From the sequence record NC_027381.1: a stretch of DNA of 64,000 nucleotides; one strand, 5' to 3'. This DNA is from Escherichia phage Pollock. Within the stretch, counting starts at the first letter, position 1, and each line of letters starts with the position of its first letter. Under the pieces are notes generated by a model that saw only the letters and a program-made list of their open reading frames with translations, ran no database searches and had not been told where the DNA came from. A program made the position numbers and the translations under genes. Of the stretch, positions 61 through 44,434 are shown in pieces.

Positions 61-85
61 GAGTCTTCGACTCTAGTGGAGCAAT
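61..85 (+). promoter_or_regulatory. Hairpin promoter-like motif copy 1 (candidate virion-RNAP early promoter)
   Basis: Inverted repeat gagtc-TTC-gactc (5-bp stem, 3-nt loop) followed by tagtggagcaat; same architecture recurs at 1501, 1551 and 3828; lies about 45 nt upstream of ORF 119..454. N4 vRNAP promoters are small DNA hairpins with 3-nt loops. Confidence 0.5.
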
Positions 86-487: not shown

Positions 488-696
488 ATTCTAATTCACA
501 CATTACACATCAGATAGATAGTATGTACATAAACACATGTGTATCCATACATATCGCTATAACGCTCTAGGAAGCTCTACAATGAGATTAAGGGTAGAGG
601 TAATAGGGTAACTCATGTTGATTTAATTCAATTGATTCTAGCTATGCTAGAAGACTTATACATTACTTACTTCTTAAGCTTCTCACTTCGTGAGTA

Positions 697-1035
697 ATGG
701 GTAGAAGTAAAAGGAGTATTTCAATGGCTATCATCAAATCAATCATAGGTTCTAATACAGAACCAGAAACACTTGTAGTAAACAAATACAAAGAGCCATA
801 CGATGTATACATCGGTAGAGGTTCAATATGGGGGAATCCCTTTACAATTCAAGAATATGGTAGAGGCAGATGTATAGCCATGTATGAGCAATACATACGT
901 CAAAGACTACATCAAGAACCAGACCTATACCTTCAATTACTTGAGCTTAAAGGTAAGCGATTAGGATGCTTCTGCAAACCTAAAGCATGTCATGGAGACA
1001 TACTTATTAAGCTTATCCAAGAGTACTCAAACTAA
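697..1035 (+). CDS. DUF4326-like protein
   Basis: Motifs YDVYIGRGSIWGNPF and C-terminal GCFCKPKACHGD resemble the DUF4326 family signature. Confidence 0.5.
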   Translation: MGRSKRSISMAIIKSIIGSNTEPETLVVNKYKEPYDVYIGRGSIWGNPFTIQEYGRGRCIAMYEQYIRQRLHQEPDLYLQLLELKGKRLGCFCKPKACHGDILIKLIQEYSN

Positions 1036-1500
1036 TATCCTAATTTTCCTTATTTTCAATAAATATACTATAGAACACCTAAAGACTATCTAGATATTTA
1101 AAAGGGTTATTTATGGTTACTCAAATCACAGTAGCTGAATGCGTTCGATTGGAATGGGAAAGTCATTATTACTTACCATTTATTGAACGTTACAAACTAA
1201 TCTCATTAATCAAAAGAATACTGGAGAACTAAATGGAATGGTGGAAAGCAGAACTAATCCAGTCAGTAATTGGAGCAATTATTGGTTTAGTTGTTGTCTA
1301 TGCAATGGTTAAGTTTGGAGGAGATGAAGATGCGTAAATCATTAATCATGGGTACTAAAGCTGATGTTATTAAGATGAAAGCTAAACGTCAGATGTATAA
1401 AACAGTGACTTTTGCAGAACGTTATAGTACATCTGAACCAGTGAATCGTATTGTTACTTTCAATCATCCAATCCTTAAAACTATGTAACCCTTTTCATCA

Positions 1501-1525
1501 CCGTCTTCGACGGTGGTGGAGTAAT
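1501..1525 (+). promoter_or_regulatory. Hairpin promoter-like motif copy 2
   Basis: ccgtc-TTC-gacgg followed by tggtggagtaat. Confidence 0.5.
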
Positions 1526-2053: not shown

Positions 2054-2055
2054 AA

Positions 2056-2722: not shown

Positions 2723-2795
2723 AGATTATCAATATTGGTAGTCCAATATTAATGTCTCTTTAGATAGTTACTCGTTAATCCAAAAGGATATCAAT

Positions 2796-3035: not shown

Positions 3036-3043
3036 GAGAAGTA

Positions 3044-3390: not shown

Positions 3391-3602
3391 ATCAGGAATT
3401 AATACTTATTCTTAAATCTCTGTGTAATATAGAAGATTACTCAATAAGAGGAATTCTATGTACAGTCATAATAGCAAAACCAAATGAAATAGGATGTGAA
3501 CACATATCATGTAGTAATTGTTATTTTGTTAGAACAGGGCCTGTAAAACACGAATATAAATTAAAAATTAGAGAAACAATTGAGAACTTTAAAACAATAT
3601 GA
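3387..3602 (+). CDS. Small Cys-rich protein, paralog family member
   Basis: MNQELILILKSL N-terminus; CEHISCSNCYF Cys cluster; 4-nt overlap with the next paralog. Confidence 0.5.
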   Translation: MNQELILILKSLCNIEDYSIRGILCTVIIAKPNEIGCEHISCSNCYFVRTGPVKHEYKLKIRETIENFKTI

Positions 3603-3827: not shown

Positions 3828-3852
3828 CTGCCTTCGGCAGTTCTGGGGTAAT
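3828..3852 (+). promoter_or_regulatory. Hairpin promoter-like motif copy 4
   Basis: ctgcc-TTC-ggcag followed by ttctggggtaat; about 30 nt upstream of macro-domain ORF 3870. Confidence 0.45.
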
Positions 3853-20516: not shown

Positions 20517-20761
20517 TGGATATCGCATTTGTAGTTTCCAAATTGATTGTTACAGAGTACACGTTGCTTAGACAATGGTGGCCTGAACAATTACGTCAAT
20601 CCAGATATGTAGATAATGGAATGACTAGAACTTACTTCTTAGATACACATCCATCCCCTGAACTTCAAGAACTCATAGAAGAGTTACATAAGTTTGGGAG
20701 AGAGTATCGACTTATAGATTTAAGAGGAGTGGAAATAGATAATGCGTCATATAATCTTTGA
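20516..20761 (+). CDS. Hypothetical protein, 81 aa
   Basis: ORF only. Confidence 0.4.
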   Translation: MDIAFVVSKLIVTEYTLLRQWWPEQLRQSRYVDNGMTRTYFLDTHPSPELQELIEELHKFGREYRLIDLRGVEIDNASYNL

Positions 20762-22688
20762 ACAAAATCAAAGATATCCAATCGCCATTCTTATTAAACC
20801 TCAACAACTAAAGAAGAAAGAGATATTAGAAGCTTATATCAATCCTACTGGAATCAAGCCAAATCAATTTATTGCATTTGACCTTGAGTACAATGGGAAA
20901 AAAGCTCCTGTATCTATGCAGAAAGACTATCTTAAAGTCTTACTACCAGAGCTTTGTAATTTAAGAACAGAATATATTCTGTGCTGTGATAGTGCATATT
21001 TCAAAACCTTAACCAAGCAATCTAAAGCAGAACCTCATTGTGGTTATGTATTGCCTTGTGTCATTCCTGGTTTTGAACATCTAAATATTATTTTCTGTCC
21101 TAATTATGCTCAGATTTTCTATGACCCTTCTGTACAGGATAAAGTTAATCTGGCTCTCAAAGTTCTAGTAGATAAGGTAAATGGTCAATACCAAGAGATT
21201 GGTAAGAACATTATCCATACTGCTTACTATCCTTCTACAGTTGAAGAAATTGAAGCTTGGCTTGAATCTCTACATCAATATCCAATTCTAGCTTCAGATA
21301 TAGAGGCATTTAGTCTTAAATTCTATAAAGCAGGTGTAGGTACTATTGGATTTGCATGGGACCAACACAATGGAGGAGCATTCGCTGTTGATTATACGAA
21401 TGAACCAGACAAGGCTGAAAGAATTAGGCAGGCTCTTAAGAAGTTTTTTGAAACTTATGAAGGCAAACTGATTTGGCATAACTCAAGTTATGACTTAACA
21501 GTGCTTATTTACCAGCTTTGGATGAATGGTTTAGTAGACCAAAAAGGATTGCTTAAGGGTTTGCACATCATGTGTCGTAATTTTCACGATACTAAGATTG
21601 TGACATATCTGGCTACAAACTCTTGTGCAGGTAATGAGTTAGGGCTAAAAGCTCAAGCTCATGAATTTGCAGGAAACTATGCACAAGAAGATATTGATGA
21701 TATTACTAAAATCCCATTACCAGACCTTCTGGAGTACAACTTAATTGACTGTCTAAGTACTTGGTATGTTGCAGACAAACATGCAGATACTATGGTATTG
21801 GATGAACAATGGGAAATTTATAATACTCTGATGTTACCTTCGCTGAAGAATATTATTCAGATGCAATTAACTGGTATGCCTATTGATATGGCAGAGGTTA
21901 AGAAGGTTAAAGCAGAAATGATTAAAGAGCGAGATGGTTATCTTAGAGCCATCAAGTCATTTGCAGTAGTAGATTTGTTAGTTAACAACCTACGTAAACA
22001 ACATGTTGCTACTAGAAATGCTACGCTCAAAACCAAGCAAATTACAATGTCTGATGAGGAGACATTAGCAATAGAGTTTAATCCAAACTCTAACCCTCAA
22101 ATGCAGGAACTTTTGTATGAAATTATGGGATTACCTGTAATTGATTTAACTGATTCTAAGCAGCCTGCTACTGGTGCAGATACTCTAGAAAAGTTAATTC
22201 ATCATACAGATGATGATAGACAGAAAAAGATTCTTGAATGCCTTATTAAATATTCTAAGGTAGAAAAAATTCTTTCTGCATTTATACCTGCATTCGAAGA
22301 AGCACCTTTAGCTGAAGATGGTACTCATTATTTATTCGGAAGCTATAACTTAGGTGGTACTGTATCTGGTCGTTTGAGTTCATCAAAACCAAACATGCAA
22401 CAAATTCCTTCCTCTAAGAGTCCTTACGCCAAACCTATAAAACGATGTTTTAAAGCTGGTAAAGGTTGGCTTCTTATTGGATTAGATTTTGCATCTCTTG
22501 AAGACCGTATTTCTGCTCTAACAACCAAAGACCCTAATAAATTGAAAGTGTATATGGGGGTGAATGTTTATACGGTTACTATAGAGGGGGTTGACCATCA
22601 TATTCGAGATGACGATACAATCATTTATGATGGTAAAACTTACACTGGTGAAGAGTTCTATGATGCTTTTACCTGTGGCCTTCTATGA
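20742..22688 (+). CDS. Family A DNA polymerase, N-terminal segment (3-prime to 5-prime exonuclease domain through polymerase motif A)
   Basis: Pol I-type motifs SGRLSSSKPNMQQIP and motif A LDFASLEDR; the ORF then runs about 45 codons further to a stop; motifs B and C lie in a different frame downstream of an HNH ORF. Confidence 0.8.
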   Translation: MRHIIFEQNQRYPIAILIKPQQLKKKEILEAYINPTGIKPNQFIAFDLEYNGKKAPVSMQKDYLKVLLPELCNLRTEYILCCDSAYFKTLTKQSKAEPHCGYVLPCVIPGFEHLNIIFCPNYAQIFYDPSVQDKVNLALKVLVDKVNGQYQEIGKNIIHTAYYPSTVEEIEAWLESLHQYPILASDIEAFSLKFYKAGVGTIGFAWDQHNGGAFAVDYTNEPDKAERIRQALKKFFETYEGKLIWHNSSYDLTVLIYQLWMNGLVDQKGLLKGLHIMCRNFHDTKIVTYLATNSCAGNELGLKAQAHEFAGNYAQEDIDDITKIPLPDLLEYNLIDCLSTWYVADKHADTMVLDEQWEIYNTLMLPSLKNIIQMQLTGMPIDMAEVKKVKAEMIKERDGYLRAIKSFAVVDLLVNNLRKQHVATRNATLKTKQITMSDEETLAIEFNPNSNPQMQELLYEIMGLPVIDLTDSKQPATGADTLEKLIHHTDDDRQKKILECLIKYSKVEKILSAFIPAFEEAPLAEDGTHYLFGSYNLGGTVSGRLSSSKPNMQQIPSSKSPYAKPIKRCFKAGKGWLLIGLDFASLEDRISALTTKDPNKLKVYMGVNVYTVTIEGVDHHIRDDDTIIYDGKTYTGEEFYDAFTCGLL

Positions 22689-23205
22689 ACAACGGTATAA
22701 GATTTTTGATGAAGGTTTCATCTTAAATCTTGCAAACAATCAACTCCTAAAACCAATTCTCAATTCTAATGGATACCTTAAAGTTGGATTAGCTAATGGT
22801 GATGGTACTCATCATCAAGAGCTACTTCATATTCTGGTAGCTAAACACTTCATTCTAAATCCTTATGGCTACAAACAGGTAAACCATAAAGATGGTAATA
22901 AACTGCATTGCCATAAGGACAATCTGGAATTGTGTTCTGCTACTCAGAACGTCAAACATGCATTTAAAACAGGACTACGCCCCGGTTATATGTCTGCTGA
23001 TGATAAAGAGAAATATCTCTTTGAGGTACTAGCAGGCAAGCAAGTTAAGGACATTGCTTTTGAAATAGGCAGACGTCCTGAAACTCTGCACAAGATGCTT
23101 AGAATCACTGCTGACCGACTTGGTATCCGAAATGAATGGGACGATGTTATGAGGAGAAATAGAAAAGATGTTGCTTTACGACAGCTTGCCAAAATCAACT
23201 CATGA
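22591..23205 (+). CDS. HNH homing endonuclease inserted in the DNA polymerase gene (true start probably downstream of 22591)
   Basis: HNH_3-type core NGYLKVGLANGDGTHHQELLHILVAKHF...VNHKDGNKLHCHKDNLE...NVKH; paralogous to the intron-encoded HNH at 11898. Confidence 0.7.
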   Translation: MTIIFEMTIQSFMMVKLTLVKSSMMLLPVAFYEQRYKIFDEGFILNLANNQLLKPILNSNGYLKVGLANGDGTHHQELLHILVAKHFILNPYGYKQVNHKDGNKLHCHKDNLELCSATQNVKHAFKTGLRPGYMSADDKEKYLFEVLAGKQVKDIAFEIGRRPETLHKMLRITADRLGIRNEWDDVMRRNRKDVALRQLAKINS

Positions 23206-30625: not shown

Positions 30626-31009
30626 ATGTATAAACTTATTGCCCCTCTTCGAGTACACAAATCTAAAAATAAGTTATTTAGTCTCAATTTGAATGCATAC
30701 AGGAATGAGAATAGATTTGCTTTGGACAATGCCAAAGTTAATTTTAAAAAGGTTATGGAAGAACAAATTAGTGAGTTACCTGAGTTCACTAAAGTTCATA
30801 TTACATATGTCTTTTATCCTGGAACCAAACATTTAAGTGATATTGGTAATGCGTGCTCGATAGTTGATAAGTTTTTTGCAGATGCTTTAGTTGAACTAGG
30901 GAAACTCCCAGATGACAATTATCTTTATATTCCTGAATTGGTTTTTCGGTTTGGGGCTGTAGACCAAAAAAATCCACGAGTAGAAATCTTTATTAAGGAA
31001 ATTGAATAA
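30626..31009 (+). CDS. RusA-like Holliday junction resolvase
   Basis: SDIGNACSIVDKFFADALVELGKLPDDNYL aligns with the RusA catalytic region [25 protein letters not shown]; about 125 aa. Confidence 0.6.
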   Translation: MYKLIAPLRVHKSKNKLFSLNLNAYRNENRFALDNAKVNFKKVMEEQISELPEFTKVHITYVFYPGTKHLSDIGNACSIVDKFFADALVELGKLPDDNYLYIPELVFRFGAVDQKNPRVEIFIKEIE

Positions 31010-31433
31010 TATGCAAATTACTCTGAACCAAGATGAAATTCTTGAAGCTCTGAAGAACTATGCTTTCTCTGTTATCAACGTAGCTCCGGGTAATGATATT
31101 ACTATCGACCTGAAAGCTGGTCGTGGTGAGAACGGATATTCTGCTACTTTAGAAATTACTCCTCAACGTAAAGAAGTAAAAACTTCCAACGTACATACAG
31201 GTTCTACTGAAAATACTGTAGGACTTCGTACAGAAGTTGTAGAACGTACTGTTGAATCTGATAAAAGAGTTATGCATGAAGTAACTCCAGAACTTCCAGT
31301 AGAAGGAGTAGACATTATAGATACTGAAGCTAAAGACCCTGCTGCAGACATGACTGAAGAAGAAGTTGATGCAGAAGTAGATGCATTTATGGCTACCCAG
31401 AATCCAACTAAATCACTCTTCGCTCGTAATTAA
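31002..31433 (+). CDS. Acidic hypothetical protein with SSB-like C-terminal tail
   Basis: Asp/Glu-rich; C-terminus NPTKSLFARN nearly identical to the C-terminus of ORF 29608. Confidence 0.45.
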   Translation: MNNMQITLNQDEILEALKNYAFSVINVAPGNDITIDLKAGRGENGYSATLEITPQRKEVKTSNVHTGSTENTVGLRTEVVERTVESDKRVMHEVTPELPVEGVDIIDTEAKDPAADMTEEEVDAEVDAFMATQNPTKSLFARN

Positions 31434-31446
31434 TTAAGGAGCTAAA

Positions 31447-31596
31447 ATGAAAGCACTTAAAGCTGCTTTCATTACTGCTCTCATAGTAGGGGTCTTTTTT
31501 ACATGGCCCCTAGTATTAACAGTAGCTGTGATAGCAGGATTATTTTGGTTTATCTATATGGCTCTGATTCAAACAGAAGAGGAAGAAGATAATTGA
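31447..31596 (+). CDS. Small membrane protein, 49 aa (hand-called)
   Basis: Hydrophobic ALIVGVFFTWPLVLTVAVIAGLFWFIYMAL followed by an acidic tail. Confidence 0.3.
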   Translation: MKALKAAFITALIVGVFFTWPLVLTVAVIAGLFWFIYMALIQTEEEEDN

Positions 31597-31823
31597 TTGT
31601 TTGGATTGTAATTGGATTAATTGTAGTCATTTGTCGTCTATCAATTTTTAGACAAAATGACCCAAAAGTAAAGAAAACTATGAGGAATGTTAAAATAGCC
31701 TTTGAAGATGAAAGACTTTATTGGGCTATCATTACTCCTTCTTTAATATTTTGGAGCATTATACTAGCTATATTTTGGCCTGTTGTAGTGTATACAAGAT
31801 TTTTCTACAAACAGAAAAAATAA
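31593..31823 (+). CDS. Small membrane protein, 76 aa
   Basis: Two hydrophobic segments (IVWIVIGLIVVI and IITPSLIFWSIILAIFWPVVV). Confidence 0.35.
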   Translation: MIVWIVIGLIVVICRLSIFRQNDPKVKKTMRNVKIAFEDERLYWAIITPSLIFWSIILAIFWPVVVYTRFFYKQKK

Positions 31824-31828
31824 ATAAT

Positions 31829-31855
31829 AAGCCTCTTCCATGAGGCTTTTTCTTT
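31829..31855. terminator. Bidirectional terminator between convergent transcription units
   Basis: aagcctc-ttccatg-aggctt stem-loop flanked by an A-run upstream and a T-run downstream; sits between the plus-strand block and the minus-strand vRNAP gene. Confidence 0.7.
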
Positions 31856-34800
31856 TAGTACAGACTTACTAAAGGATGGATAGTAAATCCATTTAGTGCT
31901 GTACCCATTCCAACGTTATAACTTAAGCTACCTGTTGCTAAGTTTGCTTCCATGATATTAGGTAATCCAGATTCAGCAGTATTACCAAACATAAGGAATA
32001 ATGCTCTTAATGGGTTTTCCCTAATCGTTCTTAAGATAATTTTCTGAATACGAATCTTATAGTTTAAGAACCATGTTAAACCAATAGCATCCAAATAGAA
32101 TCTGGTGCGACTAGGTAATATGTCATAGTTCACAAACTCATCCATTACTCTATTCAATGCACTATCTTTATCCATTGGATTACGAGAACGAGTAGTTAAA
32201 TGCTTATATAGAGAGTATTTAGCAACGAAGTCACCATACTGAATTGAACGATTCAATAAGAAGTACACATTACTATCTCTAGATAAAGTGATTTCTTTAG
32301 CAACACGTTTAACACTATCTGGAATACCAGAAGTGTACTCATCCATTTTAGTAAGTAGTTTATCCTTCAAAGAGTAATCATCCTGCTGACCTAAATCTTC
32401 TGCGATAGTTGGTAACAAACCAGCTTTAATTAAATCAGCTACTGGGTTACGAGCTTGAGAATCTTTAAGTTCAGATATTTTTCTCTGATACTCTTCAGCC
32501 ATTCTTGGATTATGGTTTACAGCCAGATAATGAGAATACTCGTTAATTAATTTCTCATTTCTTCTGTACTCCTCAGCAGCCAGTACAGCAGTAGACATAT
32601 CTTTAGCCATAGTAATTGGGCTAATACCTACCGTAGCCAAATGTACCATGTTAGATAAGATATTCCCTGCGGATACAACTACTGAACGAACTACAATCCA
32701 GTCCTTCATTTCCTTCACAAATTCCATCAAACCACGTTCACCAAGTCTTAGATAGCGTGCAGCATTCTTACCTAAGAATGTTTCTGCAATGTTTACAAAT
32801 GCTTTCTGAAACTCTTTAGAGAAATTGGTTTGACCAGTCCATAGATTCAGTACAGAAGGTTCACGATAACCAAATGCATTATTCAGTAAATCCTTACGTA
32901 CTTTAATTTTCCCATTAGGCCAAATACGTTTGGCTGCTTCTTTCATCTCAATAGGCATCAGTTCATAGATTTCTTTTAACTGATGGTCTGTAGAGTTTTC
33001 ATCTATAGTGATGTATTGATATGCTTTTCCTTCTCTAGCATCCTTCTTATAGATTTCACCAAGTCTTTCTAAAAGCATCTCATTGTATTTGGCAGCCTGA
33101 ATCTCTTCAGCAATACGACCTTCCCAAGCAGCTAATACTTTAGTGAAGTCATTATCTACATTTAATTGAGCTTCTCTATTAGCTCTTGGCATTTGGTACG
33201 AGTATCCCATTATTGAACCAGCGCGGTTTAAAACAGGCTGCATCTGTCCATCATAGTTCTGAGGCATTGGTTTAGAAGCATCAAATAAATCATTGATAGC
33301 AGCTTGTTTATTAGCTGATACCTTGTTCTTTTCTGATGTCTTCCATGCACCCGGGGTCATAGAACCATTAACACTTCTGCCTGTAATTGGGTTTACTCCA
33401 CCTACGGTGCTTTGCAGGGTACTCATTACACCAGCAATCCAACGAGGTTCACCACCATTGTTAGAATGGTAGTAGTACATTGGAGTTTTATCTGTATCTG
33501 CTGGGTCACGTTTAACTTGAGCACCTCTGGTATAGCCTCTACGAGATAAGCTTGGTTCATCCTTAATGGATGCAATAATTACTTTTTTGTTTGGGTCAGT
33601 GATAGTAGGAGTAAATCCTTTAACTGCTGCCAAAGAATAGTTATTACCAGATTTAGCTAACTCAGCGCCTTTAAGGCTTTCATAGTATTTGAGAGTAAAA
33701 GTCATACCATTATTATCTGGTTCACCTTTAGTCATCTCTCTACTGATTACATTACTTACTGTTTCTTTATCTGCTTGAGATAATTCAGTAAGAGCACTCA
33801 ATGAAGCCAAGGTATCAATTAACTGAGTAGCTATTTCAACAGCATCATTTGATGGTCTTTCTCTACCAGTACCAATCAAACGTGCAATAGCAGCAGCATT
33901 TGATAATTGGTATGCCAGTGGAGATACTCCATGCACCATCTGTTTAGCTAAACCATGAGCAGATTTAATATAGAATGCAGAGTTTTGAGCACCTGCTTTT
34001 TGTAACTGAGATTCTATTAAATCTATCTCTTTAGCTAACTCATTTGGATTAGTTAATAATTCATTTAAACGAACCAAGTCATACCCATTAGCAAACAGGT
34101 ATGCCATATCTGTATTGGCAACTACTCTCTGAATAGCCTCTTTCTCATTTTGGTTTAAAGAAACAAACGTTTTTTCAATCATACCCGGAACCATCTCACG
34201 AATAATCTGACGTGCTCTATCAGCAGCCATATTTTTCTGAGTTAATAAGGTATGAATACTACTGTTGGTTTCATTAGAACCAATAAATTCATTAATGAGT
34301 TCAGCGATAGTACCTAGTTTTCCATCCTGATGAATGGTCATATAAATGTGAGTTATAGCCTCACGTACATCATGAGCATCTTGTTCATTAAATACTGCTG
34401 CTCCAACAGTAATACCAAATGCTACAGACTTAGGTACTTTCTTCTCTACTTTGCTTAACTGCTTACGAATAGAGTTACCAAAAGCTCTCAACCTATCTTG
34501 AGTAGCTTCAGTGATTTCTTCTGTACCTCTACCAATTCTGGTAAAGAGATTATCTCTTGCCTGACTATCTACATGACTAATGTTCTTAGCCAGTTTAGAT
34601 AAACGAGAAGCAATATTTGTATCTCTTAAAGATTTAGTAGCTAAGCCAGATAACCAAGTAAGAATCATATTAGTTAAATCACCAATACGTTCTCTAAGAG
34701 ATGTAGCCTGATTCTGTCTGGTACGTTTAACACTAATTTGAGACAGCTTATTTCTTAATTGTTCATTGGTTTCAGCCAATGCAATAAAGTTAGCAAGTCT

Positions 34801-37800
34801 GTTAGTACGACCAGTAGCATCAGTAGTAATAGCTGTATTGCCAAATACTGCATCATATCTTTGTTTAGCTAATGCCATTTCATTAGCAGAACGATTGTTA
34901 GGGTCAGTTAAGAAATCTTCTACTTTTAAGTTTTCTCTGGCTTGCGAGTACAAACTACGTGCAACCAGAACACTTGGAGAAAAGTTCTCTAACCCATATT
35001 TCATAGATACTTGCAGCATCTTGAATACAAATGCTTCTTTCTCACTCATGTTAAAACCATGAGCAATTAATGCATTTGGTGAGTCATCAATTTCTGGGTC
35101 AATGCTATCTACCAAAAGTTTATCTTGGTAATGCTCTAAACCAGATATTTGCTGACCAGTATTTTTAATTACTTTAATGATATTGGATTGTAAGTAATCC
35201 AGAGTATCTGTTAGATGATTTACATGTTCCTGAGATGCTTTACCTGCATCCAATTTATTAAATAATGTTTCTGCATCTAATCTATTAATGTTGTTAGCAT
35301 TTTGCTGAGCATAGCTTGTTGTATCTCTGGATTTAACAGGATTGGTAGCATCAGCCAAAGCAACGGTATGGCCTAACAAACGAGTCCAGTAAGAAGTAAT
35401 GTCTGGATTAGAGCCAATAGCAAACAGACGTTTAATAGATTCAGCTAATTGCTTAAGTACCTTTGTTACAGTTCCTGTAATAGTTTTTTTAGTCATTGCA
35501 TCAATCATCCTTGGGTTAACAAGACCCCATGCAATGAATTCAGCAGTAGCCTGAGCCATATCACCAGAAGCAATATGATTATTAATCAAGTCTACAACAC
35601 TATCTGTTTCAGGATTCGTACTAGAATACTCATTAACAAATTTAGTCATGAGTGCTTCTATTGAAGCAATCTCTACTTTTTGAGCAGGAGTTAATGCTTC
35701 TGGATTACTGTAATAATTGTGAACAGCATTAGCAGTAGCAGCATGAATTAACTCATGCATTACAGTCTCAATAGACTGAGAACCAATATAGATATTCTGT
35801 CCCTGTGTAAGCCCTAAGAATGAGTTATTAAACTCAACCTTAGTATCAGGTGTCATTTCCTGTTGAACGGCTGAGAGAGCTTCTGGAGAGCCTACATACA
35901 CATTAATATCTTCAGGAATAGAGTTAGCAATCTTATCTAATACGAAGCTAGTAATTCTATTTTGACGAGAAGGTAAAGATTTAGCTGCTTCTTTAATAGC
36001 AGCAATCACATCACCTTTAGACAGTACTTTAATTCCATCATGTCCTGATACATTTCTTCCATTTTTAGCCAATGCTTCAATCATTTGACGAGTAGGAGGA
36101 ATAGTTACTCTACCTTTAGGGAGAGATACTGATTCCATAGTAGGAAGTTCTGTATTAGCAATTAACTGTTCTAAAGGAGTTCTGGTATCAATTGCTTCTT
36201 TATCAGTCTGCTTACCATTCTGAACATTGAATGGAATATTAGCCCCGGTCATTTGGTTAATAGAAGTAACTGCTTCTCCTCCTAATAAACCTTGTTTAAT
36301 AGCAGTTTGAGTAGCAGCTTCTTTTTTAAGAAGTGTAGTAAATGCTTCTAACACTTCTGGGCTAGTAGGTGAATTGGTTTCATCTGCTCCAATCATTTCC
36401 ATAATTCCACGGAAAGATTGTTCCAAACGTGTATCTGCATCTGGACCTAATTCTTCAGTTAGATTTACTCCTTCCATCGCTTGCTCAAAACGATTAGTAA
36501 AATCTTGAAGTAAATCAAATTCATTCCAACTTTGCAGAACACCTTGGTTAATAGCTTGAGAACCAGTATCTAAATGAGCTACAGCATTAATATAACCATC
36601 AAATACGTTAAGGGCATTGTTAGGGTTAATATCACGAGCAATAGCCTGCATAGCTGCTTCTACAGATTGAACCAATAAAGGCATTACACGAGTACCTGGT
36701 TCAGTATAAGTAGGAGTATCTACACCAAAAGTAGCACGACGCATTTTACCATCCAGATTTCTACGTCCTCTGGATTCCATACGATAAATATCAAATGTGA
36801 CTCTACCTTCTTCACTCAGAAGAATACCTTCATTTAATTTAGCTGCATCAGTATTACCAGCAGTAAACCAAGAGTTAAAGATAGGCATCTGAGTAATCAG
36901 TTCTCTCTTAATCTCGTTATATTGCTGCTGAGAAAGAGATTCATACTTAGATAATTTACCTGCTTCTCTAAGTTCTTTTTCTTTAGCTTCTACTACTTTA
37001 TTCCAACGAGACATGAATACTTCATGCATTACAGCAGCAGCATAAACCATCATCTTGCCGCGATTGATTACAGTACCAAATTCATTAGCAATTGATTCAT
37101 TTACTGCTGCACCAATACCAATTTTGATGTTTTGGGTAATTGCTTCAATCTGCTCGCTAGTAAACTCAAATTTAGTTACATCTTTTCCTAAATTGATAGG
37201 AGCACCAATTTTTACCCAAGAACCATTACGAAATACTTGAGCAGTAGTTAATTCATTAGTTGTATTGGTCAAATCATTAATATGAGCAATTGCAGCATCT
37301 CTATCTTCCTGATTAGTAGCTGAATCTACTGCTCTTAATGCTTCTGTGATTGCTTCGTAATAACCATTAGCAATACCCATAGCAATCTTTCTATTGATTG
37401 CATTAGCACCACCAGAATAAACAGTAACTGTTACTGGATTTTTAAGTAATCCTCGACCTATTTGGATTGGATGTTCTACATCCTCTCCTTCAACAATATT
37501 TACATCACCAATTAGTTTTGATGCAGCAAGAGTTACCCTTACCTGATTTTTCAAGCGTTCAATATCTCTCATCTCTTTTTGTTGGAATTGTCGAGATTTA
37601 TTTTTAAGGGCAGCTAACCTGTTAGGGATATTACTGTAAGCATCCATCATGTTGTTGATGTATTGCTGTGAGCCAGCAGCAGCAGTTTTATACAGGTCTA
37701 AGAATCCCGGTTCTTCAGCAGCATCATTGTATAGACGGTCTGATTGCCCATAGAACAAACCACCTTTCTCTAACTTATTCAGTAAATCTTGGTTCACGTC

Positions 37801-40800
37801 TTTTAAACCAAGCTGAACAATAGAGTTAAATGGTCCATTAGTTACACCATCAAGCTCCAGCATCACATGAGTCTGGAATGAGGATTTACCTTGTTCTACT
37901 GCTAATTCATATTGAGCTTGTGCATATAAAGCATGGAGTGTTTTAGTTTTCTCCTTACCTGCTTTTACAGCTTCTAAAAGAACCTCTGCATCAGCATCAC
38001 TAATTGAATCTTGGTTTTCAGCAGCTTTTAGAATATTGATAGCATCTCTAAATAAACCAGTACTGATAGCTTTATTTAGCTTATCTCTGGCAGTCTCAGA
38101 AGAGAGTTTATCAACAGCAATATCCAATCCTTGAGCAATAGCATAATCAAGAAATGCACCATGTTGAGGATTGTTGAGTTCAATAGTAGAAGGTTCAACA
38201 GTAATTAATTCACGATGTAATTTAGCTGACTGAGGGTTTAAATCCCCTGAGTTAAGCATCATACGGAAGTTACTAATTACGTTATATGCAAAATAAATAG
38301 GTGTATTAGCCAGAGGTAATCCAGCTTCTGACATACGAGTTAAACCGTTAATCAGAGTATTAATATCTCTTTCAATAGTACGGTTAGAACCTTGAATGGA
38401 TTTCAGATGAGCACCATTAGCATTCTCTTCTGATTGAATGCCTAACATTCTACCAATCCATTCTGTACCTAATTTATCCAGCATAAGGTCATGAAGACCC
38501 ATGTTGATATAATGAGGTTGTTTACTGGCTTTGTTACGTGCAGCAAGCATCTTTTCAGGAATATCCTGACCACCACCATTTTTAACTTTAGTGCTCTGAC
38601 CTTTTGGTGGAGTACCAAAGTATGCTCCTGCTTTTTCTCTCTGAGGATTAGTTAATTGACCTAAGAGGTCATTGGAATCCTTCATTAAGTCTACTAAACG
38701 TTTAGCAGCTTCAGATTCTTCATTCATACGAATGAATATACGAGAGTTTTTAATGTTGGATTCATTTACTTTAGTAGAACCAACAGCAGCTAATTCACTG
38801 TTTTTAACAACAGATTCTTGAACCAGATTAGCATTAATCATTACGTTCAATACTTCAGTTGCTAGTGCTTTAGATACAGCATCACGAACAGAGATAGGAG
38901 TATTAGGGTCAGCATTAATACCTAAGATTCCAAAAATCTCTCTGCTTAAATAATCAATAACATTTTGCCGGTCTGTACCTACATTACGTAATAAATCTGT
39001 TTGCTCTACAGTAGGTTTAGTTTTGTTATCTAAACCAAGAATATCCATTACTGTACGGTCATCATTGAATGTAGTTTCAACTGCATTACGTACAAACCAC
39101 TGCATCATACCAGCAGTCATTGCTTCAATTACTGGCTGAGGTAAGAAGTAAACATTTTCACCATTGATATTTCTTACTTCACTAAAATATTCGACAGGGT
39201 ATGTTTCCCAGAAGATACGTTGACCTTCAGGAGTTAATTTACCCCAAGATTGAATTAACGATTGTTCAATAGCAGGGACTAAACCAGCAAATTGACGTAG
39301 TACTTTTACTTCTTTCTCTGTTACTTGTTCTGGTTTAATAAATCCTTTAAACAGATTTTGAATCTGAGTAATAGGATTAGAACCATTGGTAAAAATGTTA
39401 TTAAGTCTTCCAGAGAAATTAGAAGTTCTCAGGAATGCAGAACGTTTACCTGTAGGTTTAAACCATTTTTTAACTTGGTTAGTAGCCTGATAGTTCTTAT
39501 CTGCTTCTGAAGTAGATTTAGCATCAGAACGTACAGTTTCTGATTGCAGACTACTCAGAATATCGAAATTAACACCTTTATCTAAACCAAGTTCTAATTG
39601 AGACTCATCCATTAAATCAGTCTCAACTTCAGTTGGTTTTTCCTGAATCTGAATTTCAGATTCAACTACATCTGGTTTCTCAAATAGTTCTCCTTGAACT
39701 GGAGTACTAGTAGGAGCTTCTGTAACAGCTTCTGGCTGTGTTTCTACAGTCTCAGAAGGTGTTTGTACCTGTTCTTCAGAAACCTGTGCAGAAGCCTCTA
39801 TAGGAGCTTCTGATTCTTGAGTTGAGACTAATTCCTCTGTAGCAACTGGAGCAGATTGTGCTGGCACAGATACAGGTTTACCATCTACTAATTGACTAGT
39901 AATGGTATGTGCTTGACGAACAGCATTAGCATCATTACGAATTTCTTTGATTAATCCTTTAGAACGTACCGGATGATACGTCATAGGATTTCCATCTAAA
40001 GATAAATATGGTTGTCCTGTAGTTGGATTAATTACTTCTACAGGTTGATTACCAGTAAAGTTTTGAGCAGCCTGTTCAAATGCATTAGCTTTAGTTTCCA
40101 TGTGCTCTGCAAAACGGTTTAAATGGTCTAATAAACCTTGAGCACGAGCAGTATCCCCTAAAGATAATGCACGGAAGATACCTTGCTGATACTGTTGAAT
40201 ACCAATAAATCCATCAGAACCTTTACGTACATCTTCTCCTACTTGGCTCATTGCTTTACCAGTAGCAGAGATAATTTTTAATTTATCTACATCCTGCTGG
40301 TTCAAACCAATGGTTTCTGCTGAATTAACTAAACGGTCAGCAACTTCTGGAGTAATAGAAGATGCATCTAAATTCATTTGAGCCAGAACAGATTTAATGT
40401 TCTTTTGTACTTCAGGAGATTTATAAGTTTCTGGAGTAATTTCAGAAGGTAAAGACTCCATAATCTTATTCATTTCTTCTGGAGTCAGTCTGAAGCTTTC
40501 AGCAGTAGTTTTAACTGCTTGTACATCAGGATGGTTCAGCACAGCATTGATATTATCAATAGCTGTTTGATACTGAGCTTTCTCTTCTTCTGGTGCAACT
40601 TCCATCTGTGCTTGAATTTGAGGTAAAGCTTCCTCATAAGCAGAGATAACATTATTACCTACAACAGCTAAATCTCTACGAGAAGCTTCATCCAAATTAC
40701 GTTCTTTAATTGCACGGGAAATTCTCAAAATAGAATCTGGAGAACTAATTTCCTCTTCAGGAATAGCTTTAAATACTTCTTTAGCAGCAGGTTCAGTAAC

Positions 40801-42468
40801 AGCATCAACAGCTTTAACTACAGTTGGTTCTGCTACTGCTTCAGCATCTGTTTGTTGTACTGTTTGTTTAACTGATTCATTAGCAGCAGATACAGTATTC
40901 CTAAAAGATTGTGCTCTGGATTCTGCTTTACGGGCTTCTCTTGCTTCAAATGCTTCACGACCTTGTTGAGCACCTTCTTGAATTGCTCTAGGTGTTTCAC
41001 TGATAGCCGAGCCAAAAGCACCCATACCCGCACCAGCAATAGCAGACTCAACAGCGTTTGAACCAATGTCTTCAGCAAGGGACTGAGATTCATCAGCAGA
41101 AGTCCGTATGCCGAGGTTAGAAGCAAATTGACCAGTAATCCCTTGGGAGGTTTCTTCAATAGTTTCTTTGAAAGCATTGTTAAGAACTCGTGAGGAAGCA
41201 CTAAAGAATCCCGTACCTTCAAGTAAGGAAGGAGTGAATATACGAGATTCAAATGGAGCAGCAACCTTACCAGTCAGAGCACCAAGAGTACCTGCTACCA
41301 AAGCAGTGACATTACCTGTTTGAGTACGTACTTGTCTTCTGGCTTGCTCTGGAGACATACCATCAGCAATTAAATCACGATACATAGGTGATTTTTCTGC
41401 TAATTGCTTATCAGTCATTCCATCAATCTGGTCTAATGTTTGTTGGGCATTAGAACCTGCTTCTTGGAAACCTACATAACCAACCAATGCTCTTTCAGCA
41501 GCATCCTGAAGACGTTTTCTACCATACTGAGTTGAAGCTAGCTTGGTAGCAAAATCTGCACCATATTCTTCAGCTAATTGTTTAAATGCTCCACGAGAAG
41601 CAATCTTACCTACTAAACCACCAGTTAATATATCTGGAGCAGATTCAGCAATAAGTGTAGTTAATGCTCCCGGAGCACCACCATATTGTTCAGCAGTATT
41701 AACAAACTGACGTAATTGTTCTTTAGCCCCTGCAACTAAAGGATTATCACCTTTAGCTATATCAGCAGCTTCACGAGCTTCAGCACCTTGTTTAAATCTC
41801 TCTTTTTCTGCTTCAATTACAGATTGTTCATATTGAACACGCGGAGAATATTGAGAACGTTGTTCTTCAACATACTGTTTTAATGGTACATCAATACCCA
41901 CTTGTTCTAATAAAGTAGGTTGTCCTAATTGTTCTTCTTGACCAGTAACATTAGCAATTAAATCTTGAGTATTTTGTAATGCTAAGTTACCCAAACCAGT
42001 AACAAATCTAGCTGTATTACCTGCCCATATCTGTGCAGCATTACCTACATCAGATAATTCTATAGGAGCATTTTCAAATATATCTGTATTGGCTTGAGCA
42101 ATATTTAAAGACAGTTTGTCTCTAGCTGCCTGAGGACCATATTTCTGCTGTAATGCAGATAAAGGCATATCTCTTAAATCAGCCAAATATTGCTCAGAAG
42201 GATTAGTTTGAGTAGCAGTAGTAGTAGTTCTTTGTCCAGATAGCATCTGATTCATCTGTTCTCTTGTATATTTAGGACCAGATTCTGCTAACTGGATTGC
42301 TTGCTGTGCTCTTTGATACTGTGGAGAACCTACAGCAAAGTCTATTTCTACCCCGGGTACTGGAGTACCTAACTCTAATTTCTTCTGTTGAGTAGCTATA
42401 TTTAATTGTTGTGTTTTTTGTAAGGCAGCATTAGCTAATTCTTGCTGTTTCTCAAATCCGGTGGCCAT
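31855..42468 (-). CDS. Virion-encapsidated RNA polymerase (vRNAP; N4 gp50-like), 3537 aa
   Basis: Single 10.6-kb ORF; a protein of about 3500 aa adjacent to the virion-protein block is the hallmark of N4-like podophages; synteny with the downstream late genes matches N4. Confidence 0.85.
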   Translation of the reverse strand: MATGFEKQQELANAALQKTQQLNIATQQKKLELGTPVPGVEIDFAVGSPQYQRAQQAIQLAESGPKYTREQMNQMLSGQRTTTTATQTNPSEQYLADLRDMPLSALQQKYGPQAARDKLSLNIAQANTDIFENAPIELSDVGNAAQIWAGNTARFVTGLGNLALQNTQDLIANVTGQEEQLGQPTLLEQVGIDVPLKQYVEEQRSQYSPRVQYEQSVIEAEKERFKQGAEAREAADIAKGDNPLVAGAKEQLRQFVNTAEQYGGAPGALTTLIAESAPDILTGGLVGKIASRGAFKQLAEEYGADFATKLASTQYGRKRLQDAAERALVGYVGFQEAGSNAQQTLDQIDGMTDKQLAEKSPMYRDLIADGMSPEQARRQVRTQTGNVTALVAGTLGALTGKVAAPFESRIFTPSLLEGTGFFSASSRVLNNAFKETIEETSQGITGQFASNLGIRTSADESQSLAEDIGSNAVESAIAGAGMGAFGSAISETPRAIQEGAQQGREAFEAREARKAESRAQSFRNTVSAANESVKQTVQQTDAEAVAEPTVVKAVDAVTEPAAKEVFKAIPEEEISSPDSILRISRAIKERNLDEASRRDLAVVGNNVISAYEEALPQIQAQMEVAPEEEKAQYQTAIDNINAVLNHPDVQAVKTTAESFRLTPEEMNKIMESLPSEITPETYKSPEVQKNIKSVLAQMNLDASSITPEVADRLVNSAETIGLNQQDVDKLKIISATGKAMSQVGEDVRKGSDGFIGIQQYQQGIFRALSLGDTARAQGLLDHLNRFAEHMETKANAFEQAAQNFTGNQPVEVINPTTGQPYLSLDGNPMTYHPVRSKGLIKEIRNDANAVRQAHTITSQLVDGKPVSVPAQSAPVATEELVSTQESEAPIEASAQVSEEQVQTPSETVETQPEAVTEAPTSTPVQGELFEKPDVVESEIQIQEKPTEVETDLMDESQLELGLDKGVNFDILSSLQSETVRSDAKSTSEADKNYQATNQVKKWFKPTGKRSAFLRTSNFSGRLNNIFTNGSNPITQIQNLFKGFIKPEQVTEKEVKVLRQFAGLVPAIEQSLIQSWGKLTPEGQRIFWETYPVEYFSEVRNINGENVYFLPQPVIEAMTAGMMQWFVRNAVETTFNDDRTVMDILGLDNKTKPTVEQTDLLRNVGTDRQNVIDYLSREIFGILGINADPNTPISVRDAVSKALATEVLNVMINANLVQESVVKNSELAAVGSTKVNESNIKNSRIFIRMNEESEAAKRLVDLMKDSNDLLGQLTNPQREKAGAYFGTPPKGQSTKVKNGGGQDIPEKMLAARNKASKQPHYINMGLHDLMLDKLGTEWIGRMLGIQSEENANGAHLKSIQGSNRTIERDINTLINGLTRMSEAGLPLANTPIYFAYNVISNFRMMLNSGDLNPQSAKLHRELITVEPSTIELNNPQHGAFLDYAIAQGLDIAVDKLSSETARDKLNKAISTGLFRDAINILKAAENQDSISDADAEVLLEAVKAGKEKTKTLHALYAQAQYELAVEQGKSSFQTHVMLELDGVTNGPFNSIVQLGLKDVNQDLLNKLEKGGLFYGQSDRLYNDAAEEPGFLDLYKTAAAGSQQYINNMMDAYSNIPNRLAALKNKSRQFQQKEMRDIERLKNQVRVTLAASKLIGDVNIVEGEDVEHPIQIGRGLLKNPVTVTVYSGGANAINRKIAMGIANGYYEAITEALRAVDSATNQEDRDAAIAHINDLTNTTNELTTAQVFRNGSWVKIGAPINLGKDVTKFEFTSEQIEAITQNIKIGIGAAVNESIANEFGTVINRGKMMVYAAAVMHEVFMSRWNKVVEAKEKELREAGKLSKYESLSQQQYNEIKRELITQMPIFNSWFTAGNTDAAKLNEGILLSEEGRVTFDIYRMESRGRRNLDGKMRRATFGVDTPTYTEPGTRVMPLLVQSVEAAMQAIARDINPNNALNVFDGYINAVAHLDTGSQAINQGVLQSWNEFDLLQDFTNRFEQAMEGVNLTEELGPDADTRLEQSFRGIMEMIGADETNSPTSPEVLEAFTTLLKKEAATQTAIKQGLLGGEAVTSINQMTGANIPFNVQNGKQTDKEAIDTRTPLEQLIANTELPTMESVSLPKGRVTIPPTRQMIEALAKNGRNVSGHDGIKVLSKGDVIAAIKEAAKSLPSRQNRITSFVLDKIANSIPEDINVYVGSPEALSAVQQEMTPDTKVEFNNSFLGLTQGQNIYIGSQSIETVMHELIHAATANAVHNYYSNPEALTPAQKVEIASIEALMTKFVNEYSSTNPETDSVVDLINNHIASGDMAQATAEFIAWGLVNPRMIDAMTKKTITGTVTKVLKQLAESIKRLFAIGSNPDITSYWTRLLGHTVALADATNPVKSRDTTSYAQQNANNINRLDAETLFNKLDAGKASQEHVNHLTDTLDYLQSNIIKVIKNTGQQISGLEHYQDKLLVDSIDPEIDDSPNALIAHGFNMSEKEAFVFKMLQVSMKYGLENFSPSVLVARSLYSQARENLKVEDFLTDPNNRSANEMALAKQRYDAVFGNTAITTDATGRTNRLANFIALAETNEQLRNKLSQISVKRTRQNQATSLRERIGDLTNMILTWLSGLATKSLRDTNIASRLSKLAKNISHVDSQARDNLFTRIGRGTEEITEATQDRLRAFGNSIRKQLSKVEKKVPKSVAFGITVGAAVFNEQDAHDVREAITHIYMTIHQDGKLGTIAELINEFIGSNETNSSIHTLLTQKNMAADRARQIIREMVPGMIEKTFVSLNQNEKEAIQRVVANTDMAYLFANGYDLVRLNELLTNPNELAKEIDLIESQLQKAGAQNSAFYIKSAHGLAKQMVHGVSPLAYQLSNAAAIARLIGTGRERPSNDAVEIATQLIDTLASLSALTELSQADKETVSNVISREMTKGEPDNNGMTFTLKYYESLKGAELAKSGNNYSLAAVKGFTPTITDPNKKVIIASIKDEPSLSRRGYTRGAQVKRDPADTDKTPMYYYHSNNGGEPRWIAGVMSTLQSTVGGVNPITGRSVNGSMTPGAWKTSEKNKVSANKQAAINDLFDASKPMPQNYDGQMQPVLNRAGSIMGYSYQMPRANREAQLNVDNDFTKVLAAWEGRIAEEIQAAKYNEMLLERLGEIYKKDAREGKAYQYITIDENSTDHQLKEIYELMPIEMKEAAKRIWPNGKIKVRKDLLNNAFGYREPSVLNLWTGQTNFSKEFQKAFVNIAETFLGKNAARYLRLGERGLMEFVKEMKDWIVVRSVVVSAGNILSNMVHLATVGISPITMAKDMSTAVLAAEEYRRNEKLINEYSHYLAVNHNPRMAEEYQRKISELKDSQARNPVADLIKAGLLPTIAEDLGQQDDYSLKDKLLTKMDEYTSGIPDSVKRVAKEITLSRDSNVYFLLNRSIQYGDFVAKYSLYKHLTTRSRNPMDKDSALNRVMDEFVNYDILPSRTRFYLDAIGLTWFLNYKIRIQKIILRTIRENPLRALFLMFGNTAESGLPNIMEANLATGSLSYNVGMGTALNGFTIHPLVSLY

Positions 42469-42513
42469 TTGAAATCCTCTAAAGGAATGTAACTGGATAG
42501 GAGTGTACTAAAA

Positions 42514-42537
42514 GAAATCCCTCACTAGGAGGGATTT
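42514..42537 (-). terminator. Hairpin between virion gene and vRNAP gene (possible terminator or attenuator)
   Basis: aaatccctc-n5-gagggattt inverted repeat with a T-rich run on the minus strand. Confidence 0.4.
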
Positions 42538-42542
42538 TGTCA

Positions 42543-43958
42543 TTATCTCGTAGATTTATTCACTTTTGGATTACCTAATGTATCCTCAAGGAACTTTCTT
42601 AACTGTTGTCGTTGTCCACTGTAATCAGGAACAACTGGTTGGAATGATTCCACAGGAGTACCAGAAATATTAGCTCTAGGTAGTTTTCTCTGAAACTCAA
42701 TTAAAGGAGCATTTGCTTCTTTAAGAAGTGATTCTTGAGATTTATCTACCAGTCTTAATGCATCAGTTAAAGCTTGTTTAGCAGCAGCATTACTTGCTGT
42801 TTTCTTAGCTTGTTCTGCATTTCTTTCTACAGTACCAAATGAAATAGATACCCCATCTGTAAACCAATTAGGAGATAACGATTGTTCCATGATATACCCA
42901 ACAGTGGCTGGCGTAGCATTGGGGTATTTTTTCTTAATACGAGTATATGCTTCTGTAGCTTCATCTGGGTCTGATAATCTAGACTGAAAGCTTTTGATAA
43001 CATCATCTGCTTTAGTCTTCTTATCATCCTGTAGATTGAATACAGTAGGGTCAATACCAGAACTAAGAAATGCAGCATTAACTTCCTGTATTGCATCCTG
43101 CTTGTATTGGTCTGCTGCTTCTTTATTAAGAACACTTTGGTTCTGAATAATAGTTGCTTGTTCAGGAGTAGGAGCACCTAATGTACTAATGTTCTGGGAT
43201 ACAGCAGTAGCAACCTGATTACCAGTAACAGGGTTAACATTAAATTTCTTCTGCAATTCAGCAGCTTTAGCCCCAATAGGTTTATCTGGATTATCCAATA
43301 CCCATTGGTTTAATTCCTGAGCATAATTTCTTAAACCAATACGTTCTTCAGCAGCAAGCTTTCTTTCTGCATTTGCAGATGCTCTGGTAGCACGAGATTC
43401 AGCTAGTTGTGCCTGTCTTAAACCAAGCTCTGCTAATTGCTGTCTACGATTAGTTAAATCACCATATAGTTGACGAGCATTAGCAAAATTAGCTTCATTT
43501 TGTCTAAGGAATGCTTCTGCCTGATTAGGATTACTAGCCAATAAAGAATAGAACTGGTTCTCATATGGTTGAGATGCCTGTTCTTTCTGTAGATTCTCTA
43601 ATTGAATCTGACCAGAAATATCTTGTCTTAACTGCCCCGGTCTTGTAGCTAAAATTTGGTTAATAGCTGATTGGTCTACAGCAGCACCAAATCTACTTCT
43701 TAAATTATCAGCAGCAAACTGTTGTCTGGCTGCTTCTAATGAAGCAGGGTCAGTAAAACCAAGTAATTCATTTTGTAATGCAGCAGTGTTTTGAGTACGT
43801 GCAGTATTAAAATTGATATTACTTAGTTCTTGCTGTCGTTGGACAGGAGCCAATAAACCAGAAAGAGCATCTCTGATGCTTTGAGCACCTACTTGTTGGA
43901 GTCTTGCTATTCCTGTTAAATCAGGAGCATCAATATTTCTCCATGTTATCTGAGCCAT
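42543..43958 (-). CDS. Virion structural protein (N4 gp51 position)
   Basis: Gln/Ala-rich 471-aa ORF in the late block upstream of the vRNAP gene. Confidence 0.45.
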   Translation of the reverse strand: MAQITWRNIDAPDLTGIARLQQVGAQSIRDALSGLLAPVQRQQELSNINFNTARTQNTAALQNELLGFTDPASLEAARQQFAADNLRSRFGAAVDQSAINQILATRPGQLRQDISGQIQLENLQKEQASQPYENQFYSLLASNPNQAEAFLRQNEANFANARQLYGDLTNRRQQLAELGLRQAQLAESRATRASANAERKLAAEERIGLRNYAQELNQWVLDNPDKPIGAKAAELQKKFNVNPVTGNQVATAVSQNISTLGAPTPEQATIIQNQSVLNKEAADQYKQDAIQEVNAAFLSSGIDPTVFNLQDDKKTKADDVIKSFQSRLSDPDEATEAYTRIKKKYPNATPATVGYIMEQSLSPNWFTDGVSISFGTVERNAEQAKKTASNAAAKQALTDALRLVDKSQESLLKEANAPLIEFQRKLPRANISGTPVESFQPVVPDYSGQRQQLRKFLEDTLGNPKVNKSTR

Positions 43959-43967
43959 GATTACTCC

Positions 43968-44432
43968 TTAGAGACGATTTTTATTTAAGTAGGCTTGAAC
44001 GTCTTCTTCTTTACCAGCGTAATCAGAAGTACGTCCTCTGATTCTGTCTTCAAGGGCTGTGTTATATGCTTGTCTTTGGTTTGCTAGATTAGTGTTATAT
44101 GCGTTTCTTTGGAAATTTAACTGGTCTTTAGCTAAACCAAGATTCTGCATACCTGACCATGCTTGGAATATAGAACCTAATCCTTGTAAGGTAGGGGAGA
44201 TGATTCCTTGACTCTGAAATCCAGTTGACGGGTCAGTACCACCAAATAAAGTGCGTGCAGTATCCCCATTCAACCAATCAGAGAATGCAGAAAACATTCC
44301 TGAATTACCTAATGCAGAAGTATCTACAGTAGATAAAGGTGTGTTTAATATACTACTTTGTGTTGGATTATAGTTTTGGTAAACCAAAGGTAATTGCTGT
44401 TGGTTCATACCAAAGTTTAAATCAAAAGCCAT
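43968..44432 (-). CDS. Virion structural protein (N4 gp52 position)
   Basis: Late-block ORF; position only. Confidence 0.45.
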   Translation of the reverse strand: MAFDLNFGMNQQQLPLVYQNYNPTQSSILNTPLSTVDTSALGNSGMFSAFSDWLNGDTARTLFGGTDPSTGFQSQGIISPTLQGLGSIFQAWSGMQNLGLAKDQLNFQRNAYNTNLANQRQAYNTALEDRIRGRTSDYAGKEEDVQAYLNKNRL

Positions 44433-44434
44433 AG

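Follow-up and report, generated by a model that had tools for sequence, protein, structure and literature searches.

Assignment of the 10.6-kb gene of Escherichia phage Pollock to the N4 gp50 family of virion RNA polymerases, and its predicted hairpin promoters

The described system with which the largest gene of Escherichia phage Pollock is to be compared is gp50, the virion-encapsidated RNA polymerase (vRNAP) of phage N4. The Pollock gene lies at 31855..42468 of the 64,000-nt stretch of record NC_027381.1 that was analysed here and is called the window. In N4, the vRNAP promoter is a template-strand hairpin with a 5-7-bp stem, a 3-nt loop 5'-G(-10) R(-11) A(-12)-3', a C:G closure, a 4-nt spacer and +1C (PMC4496689). 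The N-terminal domain (NTD) of N4 gp50 binds membranes, and C2, a subdomain of the C-terminal domain (CTD), is an autoinhibitory domain with a novel fold (PMC12633501). An HExxH motif has been recorded in the same gp50 preprint, and it is called a 'putative zinc-binding motif' in the DEV paper. Of the smaller ejection proteins, gp52 is described as the outer-membrane pore and gp51 as the periplasmic tunnel in the discussion of the N4 preprint and in the DEV paper, whereas the abstract of the preprint reverses them (PMC12633501). That cysteine is suppressed in the proteins encoded by the ejection operon of Schitoviridae has been published. For Pollock itself, the genome announcement of Patel et al. 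(2015) stated that homologues of the N4 vRNAP, RNAPII and SSB are encoded, and that the genome was originally assembled from 454 reads; the deposited record and the announcement leave the domains, motifs and promoters of the vRNAP undescribed.

The gene and its translation start are as follows.

31855..42468, minus strand: vRNAP gene (N4 gp50 homologue), 3537 amino acids (aa) plus a TAA stop, with an ATG start
42475..42480, minus strand: Shine-Dalgarno sequence AGAGGA, 6 nt ahead of the vRNAP ATG

We suggest that this gene almost certainly encodes the virion-encapsidated RNA polymerase of Pollock, a member of the N4 gp50 family. By exact-sequence look-up, the protein is YP_009152160.1 / AIX12418.1, 'virion RNA polymerase [Escherichia phage Pollock]' (genome KM236242), of a phage classified in Schitoviridae, Humphriesvirinae, Pollockvirus. 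Since it is identical to a deposited Pollock entry of that name, and a homologue had been stated in 2015, the finding was already known and annotated. The preliminary description, which was made from the letters of the window alone, had reported a single 10.6-kb open reading frame (ORF) encoding 3537 aa as the window's largest protein, and the ORF listing of the 64,000-nt window agrees with this exactly, the runner-up having 1088 aa. It had also taken the product to be the injected vRNAP of an N4-like phage, on which family matches, motifs, fold, synteny, promoters and the deposited name all agree.

The family matches cover nearly the whole protein. PHROG 2206, 'virion RNA polymerase', is matched with E=0 over aa 59-3536 (profile positions 15-3404 of 3406), and three Pfam vRNAP domains, at aa 1310-1422, 1644-1806 and 1940-2073, score 50.7 (PF21894), 40.8 (PF21867) and 35.0 bits (PF21769), all above the gathering cut-off of 27. 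The full-length structures of N4 gp50 are matched with E 1.8e-183 and the mini-vRNAP crystal structures with E 2e-44, the aligned segments of N4 gp50 being 638-3535 and 204-586. An exhaustive search for representatives of the gp50 family gave 884 at 50% clustering, nearly all of them with 3300-3800 aa. The full-length protein shares 88% amino acid identity with the vRNAP of SP-058, 82% with that of Pylas and 30% with that of N4, and the identity to N4 is even along the protein (27-42%). In a megablast search of phage genomes, Salmonella phages of the FSL SP-058 group (Ithacavirus) were matched with about 85% nucleotide identity across 98% of the ORF, and the Klebsiella phages Pylas (Pylasvirus) and KpCHEMY26 with about 80%; the gene matched carries the annotation virion RNA polymerase in both the SP-058 and the Pylas/KpCHEMY26 groups. 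The vRNAP ORFs of these relatives have 3595 aa and 3819 aa, and the Pollock protein is shorter than that of SP-058 by 58 aa and than that of Pylas by 282 aa. Residue 1 is aligned in register with the annotated vRNAP starts of the relatives.

The domain limits were transferred by alignment from the N4 boundaries of the 2025 gp50 cryo-EM preprint, which gave the following order.

39859..42468, minus strand: N-terminal domain, aa 1-~870, equivalent of the membrane-binding NTD of N4
39580..39861, minus strand: acidic low-complexity linker rich in E/V/P/S/Q/T, aa ~870-963, equivalent of N4 residues 907-1006
36154..39579, minus strand: single-subunit RNA polymerase module, aa 964-2105, placed by Pfam, the N4 alignment and the model
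aa 2106-2129: short linker between the polymerase module and C1
35323..36081, minus strand: CTD subdomain C1, aa 2130-2382, the HExxH...E module
31858..35322, minus strand: CTD subdomain C2, aa 2383-3537, large, helical and colinear with C2 of N4

The polymerase module carries the evidence for the enzymatic assignment, and its catalytic motifs were located at these positions.

37849-37851, minus strand: motif A, catalytic residue D1540
37417-37455, minus strand: motif B, catalytic residues R1672/K1676/Y1684
36598-36600, minus strand: motif C, catalytic residue D1957

R1402 (the arginine of T/DxxGR), K1416, R1419 and Y1593 are present as well. An alignment to the N4 gp50 central-domain motifs had been proposed as a check in the preliminary description, which took their lack as a refutation; every catalytic residue of N4 mini-vRNAP was found within aa 964-2105, and the assignment was not refuted. 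We aligned 51 modules, namely the window protein, N4 gp50 and 49 diverse family representatives, and found R424, K437, R440, D559, Y612, R666, K670 and D951 (mini-vRNAP numbering) to be invariant in all 51, with Y678 being Y or F. The AlphaFold2 model of the module, built with 21 sequences as input, has a predicted local distance difference test (pLDDT) of 85.9 and a predicted template modelling score (pTM) of 0.81. Its best Foldseek matches are the N4 mini-vRNAP promoter complexes 3c3l, 3c2p and 3c46 (E ~9e-44, template modelling (TM) score 0.79/0.82), which superpose over the whole length; the matches including 9pnq and 2po4 have E values of 1e-42 to 9e-44 and TM scores of 0.76-0.82. The T7 and mitochondrial RNA polymerases form a distant second tier (TM 0.35-0.5, E~1e-13), and PF00940, the T7-like RNA_pol family of Pfam, has no match in the vRNAP protein.

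The NTD can be aligned to that of N4 with 32% identity. It is the least conserved part of the protein: over its first 256 aa, the identity to SP-058 is 62%, compared with 88% overall, and about 58 aa of SP-058 and Pylas are missing near aa 80-90 of the window protein (42207-42468 covers aa 1-~90). A Kyte-Doolittle scan of the NTD found a single weakly hydrophobic 19-mer above threshold, at aa 387-405, and aa 267-308, which are aligned to the membrane-spanning helices of N4 (N4 224-278), show no distinct hydrophobic signal.

The preliminary description had connected the gene with motifs of hairpin promoters at the window's left end. Our scan, for which N4 served as the positive control and gave exactly three sites, just upstream of gp1, gp2 and gp15, bore this out with five predicted N4-type sites that are conserved in two other genera of Humphriesvirinae.

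61..78, plus strand: predicted promoter P1, template hairpin GAGTC-GAA-GACTC at 61-73, 4-nt spacer, predicted +1 at 78
682..699, plus strand: predicted promoter P2, CTCAC-TTC-GTGAG on the plus strand, hairpin at 682-694, predicted +1 at 699
1499..1518, plus strand: predicted promoter P3, 7-bp stem, hairpin at 1499-1515, predicted +1 at 1518, in tandem with P4
1552..1570, plus strand: predicted promoter P4, 6-bp stem, hairpin at 1552-1566, predicted +1 at 1570
3828..3845, plus strand: predicted promoter P5, hairpin at 3828-3840, predicted +1 at 3845

All five have the template loop 5'-C-GAA-G-3', and NNNT and GG come next, in that order. In the 64 kb, CTTCGN7TGG has five matches, compared with 0.56 expected by chance, and all of them lie on the plus strand in the first 3.9 kb. 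SP-058 and Pylas also have P1-P5, in unchanged order, and the stems vary in a compensatory manner: P5 has CTGCC/GGCAG in the window, where both relatives have CAGCC/GGCTG, and the stem of P2 is entirely different in Pylas, again with compensatory changes. When folded as the template strand, the window hairpins have energies of -2.9 to -6.9 kcal/mol, compared with -3.7 to -6.7 kcal/mol for N4. The genes downstream are a gp1-like gene, a gp2-like gene (behind the tandem P3/P4), and a phosphatase-like gene with two RNAPII subunit genes (behind P5), and the initial transcribed sequences are alike, with GGRRTAA in four of the five promoters. The set differs from that of N4 in the number of promoters (five, not three), in a loop that is GAA throughout, and in a template position -8 other than G. 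No published description of Humphriesvirinae hairpin promoters was found in the papers searched.

One annotated ORF is affected by these positions. The ATG of ORF 697..1035 (697-699) overlaps the predicted +1 of P2, which is the G of that ATG, and the annotation of its SP-058 homologue also begins at this ATG. If the spacing is that of N4, such a start would be off the transcript, and the real start is therefore probably further downstream.

The genes directly upstream of the vRNAP gene are those of two further ejection proteins, which match N4 gp51 with E 9e-8 and N4 gp52 with E 1e-14.

42543..43958, minus strand: gp51-like ejection protein, 471 aa, 0 Cys, with the N-terminus MAQITWRNIDAP in common with N4 gp51
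43968..44432, minus strand: gp52-like ejection protein, 154 aa, 0 Cys, homologue of N4 gp52

The vRNAP gene is the last gene of an ejection operon of gp52-like, gp51-like and vRNAP genes. Cysteine is absent from all three products (0/3537 residues in the vRNAP, 0/471 in the gp51-like and 0/154 in the gp52-like protein), compared with 0.97% in the other proteins (P~1e-15), and 134 of the 140 full-length family representatives are likewise without it. The virion genes are Cys-poor in general (0.56% versus 1.25% for the plus-strand genes). We considered the absence of cysteine as a novel feature and dropped this, since it is a published trait of the family.

The vRNAP gene closes the leftward block and is convergent with the replication genes, in the same place as gp50 in N4; the expectation that an N4-like vRNAP would be found on this strand and in this position was thus borne out. 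The sign of the GC skew changes at about 31.8 kb, where the rightward Sak4-like, SSB and RusA genes meet the vRNAP gene, and hairpins lie at both ends of the gene.

31829..31848, no strand assigned: bidirectional terminator-like hairpin at the convergence of the rightward genes and the vRNAP gene
42515..42537, minus strand: terminator-like 9-bp hairpin followed by CTTTT, between the gp51-like and vRNAP genes

The copies of the hairpin at 42515-42537 in SP-058 and Pylas are identical to it, N4 has a different hairpin with a T-run at the matching site, and its folding energy is ordinary (z -0.7). This hairpin could attenuate read-through and so set a low copy number of the vRNAP. An 11-mer, CTTTTAGTACA, which follows the hairpins at both ends of the gene, was rejected as a shared element, its frequency being that of chance (3 matches versus 2.9 expected, with one mismatch allowed). 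As a separate observation, sigma-70-like promoter matches are strongly depleted in 31000-45000, with 16 compared with 44.7 +/- 6.7 in dinucleotide shuffles.

Subdomain C1 contains two motifs.

35743-35757, minus strand: HELIH, aa 2238-2242, the HExxH motif in C1
35521-35544, minus strand: AEFIAWGL with the conserved glutamate E2310, in C1

H2238, E2239, H2242 and E2310 are invariant in 17 of 17 sequences of the C1 profile, and the spacing from the second histidine to the glutamate is 49-83 residues in the family. The C1 model (pLDDT 81.8) was matched by Foldseek to N4 gp50 only (9pnt/9pnr). The profile, in turn, matched 9sfn_G, a phiKMV-type 'internal virion protein' of 1337 aa, with E 3.5e-22 and with both motifs in register, followed by 8vb2 chain A (PhiM1 gp48, E 0.003) and 23sg chain S ('gp10', 1239 aa, E 0.006). 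When the 9sfn segment was used as a tblastn query, Schitoviridae vRNAPs were recovered reciprocally, and the pairwise comparison of the window C1 with this segment gave E 3e-10. C1 is therefore homologous to a domain of the T7-gp16/IVP-D-class ejection proteins. The link is absent from the recent structural papers that were checked, but the homology of C1 to gp16-class ejection proteins had already been published by Hardies et al. (2016), which our result confirms without being a discovery of its own. A lytic transglycosylase or endolysin domain, as found in T7 gp16 and many of its relatives, is absent: Pfam gave no SLT or lysozyme match to the vRNAP at E<=1.

An HExxH motif with a downstream glutamate has the third-ligand pattern of the zincin metallopeptidases, at the level of the motif. 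The designation of C1 as a zincin protease was rejected, as Pfam and Foldseek gave no match to a zincin fold or a peptidase family and the resemblance is one of motif. That the HExxH...E of C1 acts as an active zinc hydrolase, and not as a structural motif, seems possible but rather unlikely. Such an enzyme might, for example, supply a peptidoglycan-peptide or protein-processing activity which the N4 ejectosome is said to lack; alternatively, it might perform a self-processing step that relieves the autoinhibition by the CTD. If true, this would be a property of the whole family and nothing special to Pollock, the motif being invariant across hundreds of lineages.

The gene contains eleven antisense (plus-strand) ORFs of 50-98 aa, which the preliminary description had guessed to be spurious. 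When the codons of the main ORF were shuffled synonymously 300 times, antisense open runs were equally long or longer (the longest runs are 71/109/54 codons, compared with shuffle means of 105/123/68), and we accordingly regard these ORFs as spurious, as had been guessed. The 98-aa ORF is kept in SP-058 and is not kept in Pylas. One ORF on the coding strand required separate consideration.

40833..41264, minus strand: same-strand +1-frame ORF of 143 aa with a TTG start, within the NTD-coding region

It might be proposed that this frame encodes a second, overlapping protein. Its stop-free run of 146 codons exceeds that of all 300 shuffles (mean 74, maximum 139), and open frames of 115 aa and 103 aa occupy the homologous stretch in SP-058 and Pylas, respectively. 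Such retention is uninformative, however, because these relatives are too close, and the SP-058 stretch has a stop near its start. Moreover, neither the TTG nor the first ATG is preceded by a ribosome-binding site, the translation is junk-like with about 30% leucine, and the fraction of synonymous differences in the region (0.28) lies inside the range of the gene elsewhere (0.23-0.51), so that there is no dip at synonymous sites. We consider a second protein very improbable; the open frame is probably compositional.

Some caveats go with the assignment of the gene. Within T/DxxGR, the T and the G are not retained (ISNFR compared with TRVGR in N4), the arginine alone being invariant in the family. 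The residues with which the N4 enzyme reads promoter bases, K114, R119, D901 and R904, are not conserved here and are variable family-wide. The stacking position of W129 is aromatic in 47 of 51 modules, and its equivalent in the window is F1086, W1087 or Y1094, depending on the alignment; the global placement of W129, K114 and R119 by MAFFT is unreliable, and HMMER and the family alignment give other equivalents. In the operon, the gp51-like protein matches N4 gp51 at the N-terminus only. Because the base-reading residues are not conserved and template -8 is not G, the promoter specificity must differ from that of N4, and the predicted specificity has co-diverged with the polymerase. No result obtained here contradicts the vRNAP assignment.

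The homology of C1 also allows for the proposal that the protein is an ejectosome scaffold of the T7-gp16/IVP-D type in which the polymerase is a degenerate, non-catalytic relic. This is less probable still than the overlapping protein: the residues that bind metal and nucleoside triphosphate are invariant across the 51 diverse members, the window included, the fold of the module is intact, and there are five conserved cognate promoters with compensatory changes. A role as an ejection scaffold, furthermore, complements that of a polymerase and is no alternative to it. The idea that a sequencing error has fused at least two genes, and that the giant ORF is thus an artefact of assembly or annotation, could appeal to the extreme size and the original assembly from 454 reads, but it has practically no chance of being correct, since 18 of the 19 other cluster members, which are near-identical, have exactly 3537 aa in independent Logan/ENA assemblies, N4 gp50 and PHROG 2206 are both colinear with the ORF from one end to the other, and the relatives carry the 3595-aa and 3819-aa ORFs.

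Elsewhere in the window, the family A DNA polymerase at 20742-24028 (plus strand) consists of two ORFs split by an HNH endonuclease ORF at 22591..23205, which matches the Pollock genome announcement. ARAGORN found no tRNA genes in the 64,000-nt window, and the announcement reported four tRNAs, which may lie in the ~4 kb outside the window or miss the ARAGORN criteria. Two large tailspike/tail-fibre genes on the minus strand, at 54951-57806 (951 aa) and 57853-61119 (1088 aa), have mosaic PHROG matches, which suggests dual receptor-binding proteins.

The domain architecture, intact active site, fold, operon context, Cys-free composition and cognate promoter set come from the Pollock sequence and the model, and the course of infection is drawn from the experiments on N4 (PMC4496689, PMC12633501) and DEV. 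By homology with these, a few copies of the vRNAP would be packaged in the capsid. The two small ejection proteins would first build an envelope-spanning channel, and the vRNAP would then be expelled through the tail, partly unfolded, as beads on a string; the absence of cysteine would keep it from being trapped by disulfides in the periplasm. Its NTD would anchor at the inner membrane, where the protein is expected to refold. It would then recognise single-stranded template hairpins (5'-C-GAA-G-3' loop, 5-7-bp stem) extruded by gyrase and supercoiling, initiate 8 nt downstream of position -8, at +1C, and transcribe the early genes, namely the gp1-like and gp2-like genes and those of the RNAPII subunits. 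The vRNAP may possibly also pull the genome in, and the CTD would dampen the polymerase allosterically.

The vRNAP gene, the hallmark of Schitoviridae, was already annotated in Pollock, and within its well-studied family it is ordinary. The by-products of the analysis are a residue-level map of the domains and motifs of the Pollock vRNAP; a promoter-polymerase pair that offers a natural variant of the N4 specificity, made up of five conserved GAA-loop promoters of Humphriesvirinae and non-conserved base-reading residues; and an independent confirmation, anchored to the structures 9SFN and 8VB2, of the link between vRNAPs and the gp16 class through the HExxH subdomain.

Three described systems can be compared with the Pollock protein. 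The single-subunit RNA polymerases of T7 and mitochondria have the right-hand fold and the chemistry of motifs A, B and C in common with it, at an identity of about 10%; unlike them, the vRNAP uses single-stranded hairpin promoters and has its module embedded in an ejection protein of 3.5 kaa, and the module is a structural relative only of the T7-like enzymes. The ejection proteins of the T7 gp16/IVP-D class, such as those of phiKMV-like and PhiM1-like phages, share the HExxH...E-x-x-AWGLT module with C1 of the window, and like the vRNAP they are the largest, last-ejected and Cys-poor ejection proteins. N4 gp50 (PDB 2PO4, 3C2P, 3C3L, 9PNQ, 9PNR, 9PNT) resembles the Pollock protein in the order of NTD, linker, RNA polymerase, C1 (with HExxH) and C2, in the catalytic residues, in the fold of the module (TM ~0.8), in the absence of cysteine, in the operon context, and in a promoter architecture with a 3-nt G-R-A loop, C:G closure, 4-nt spacer and +1C.

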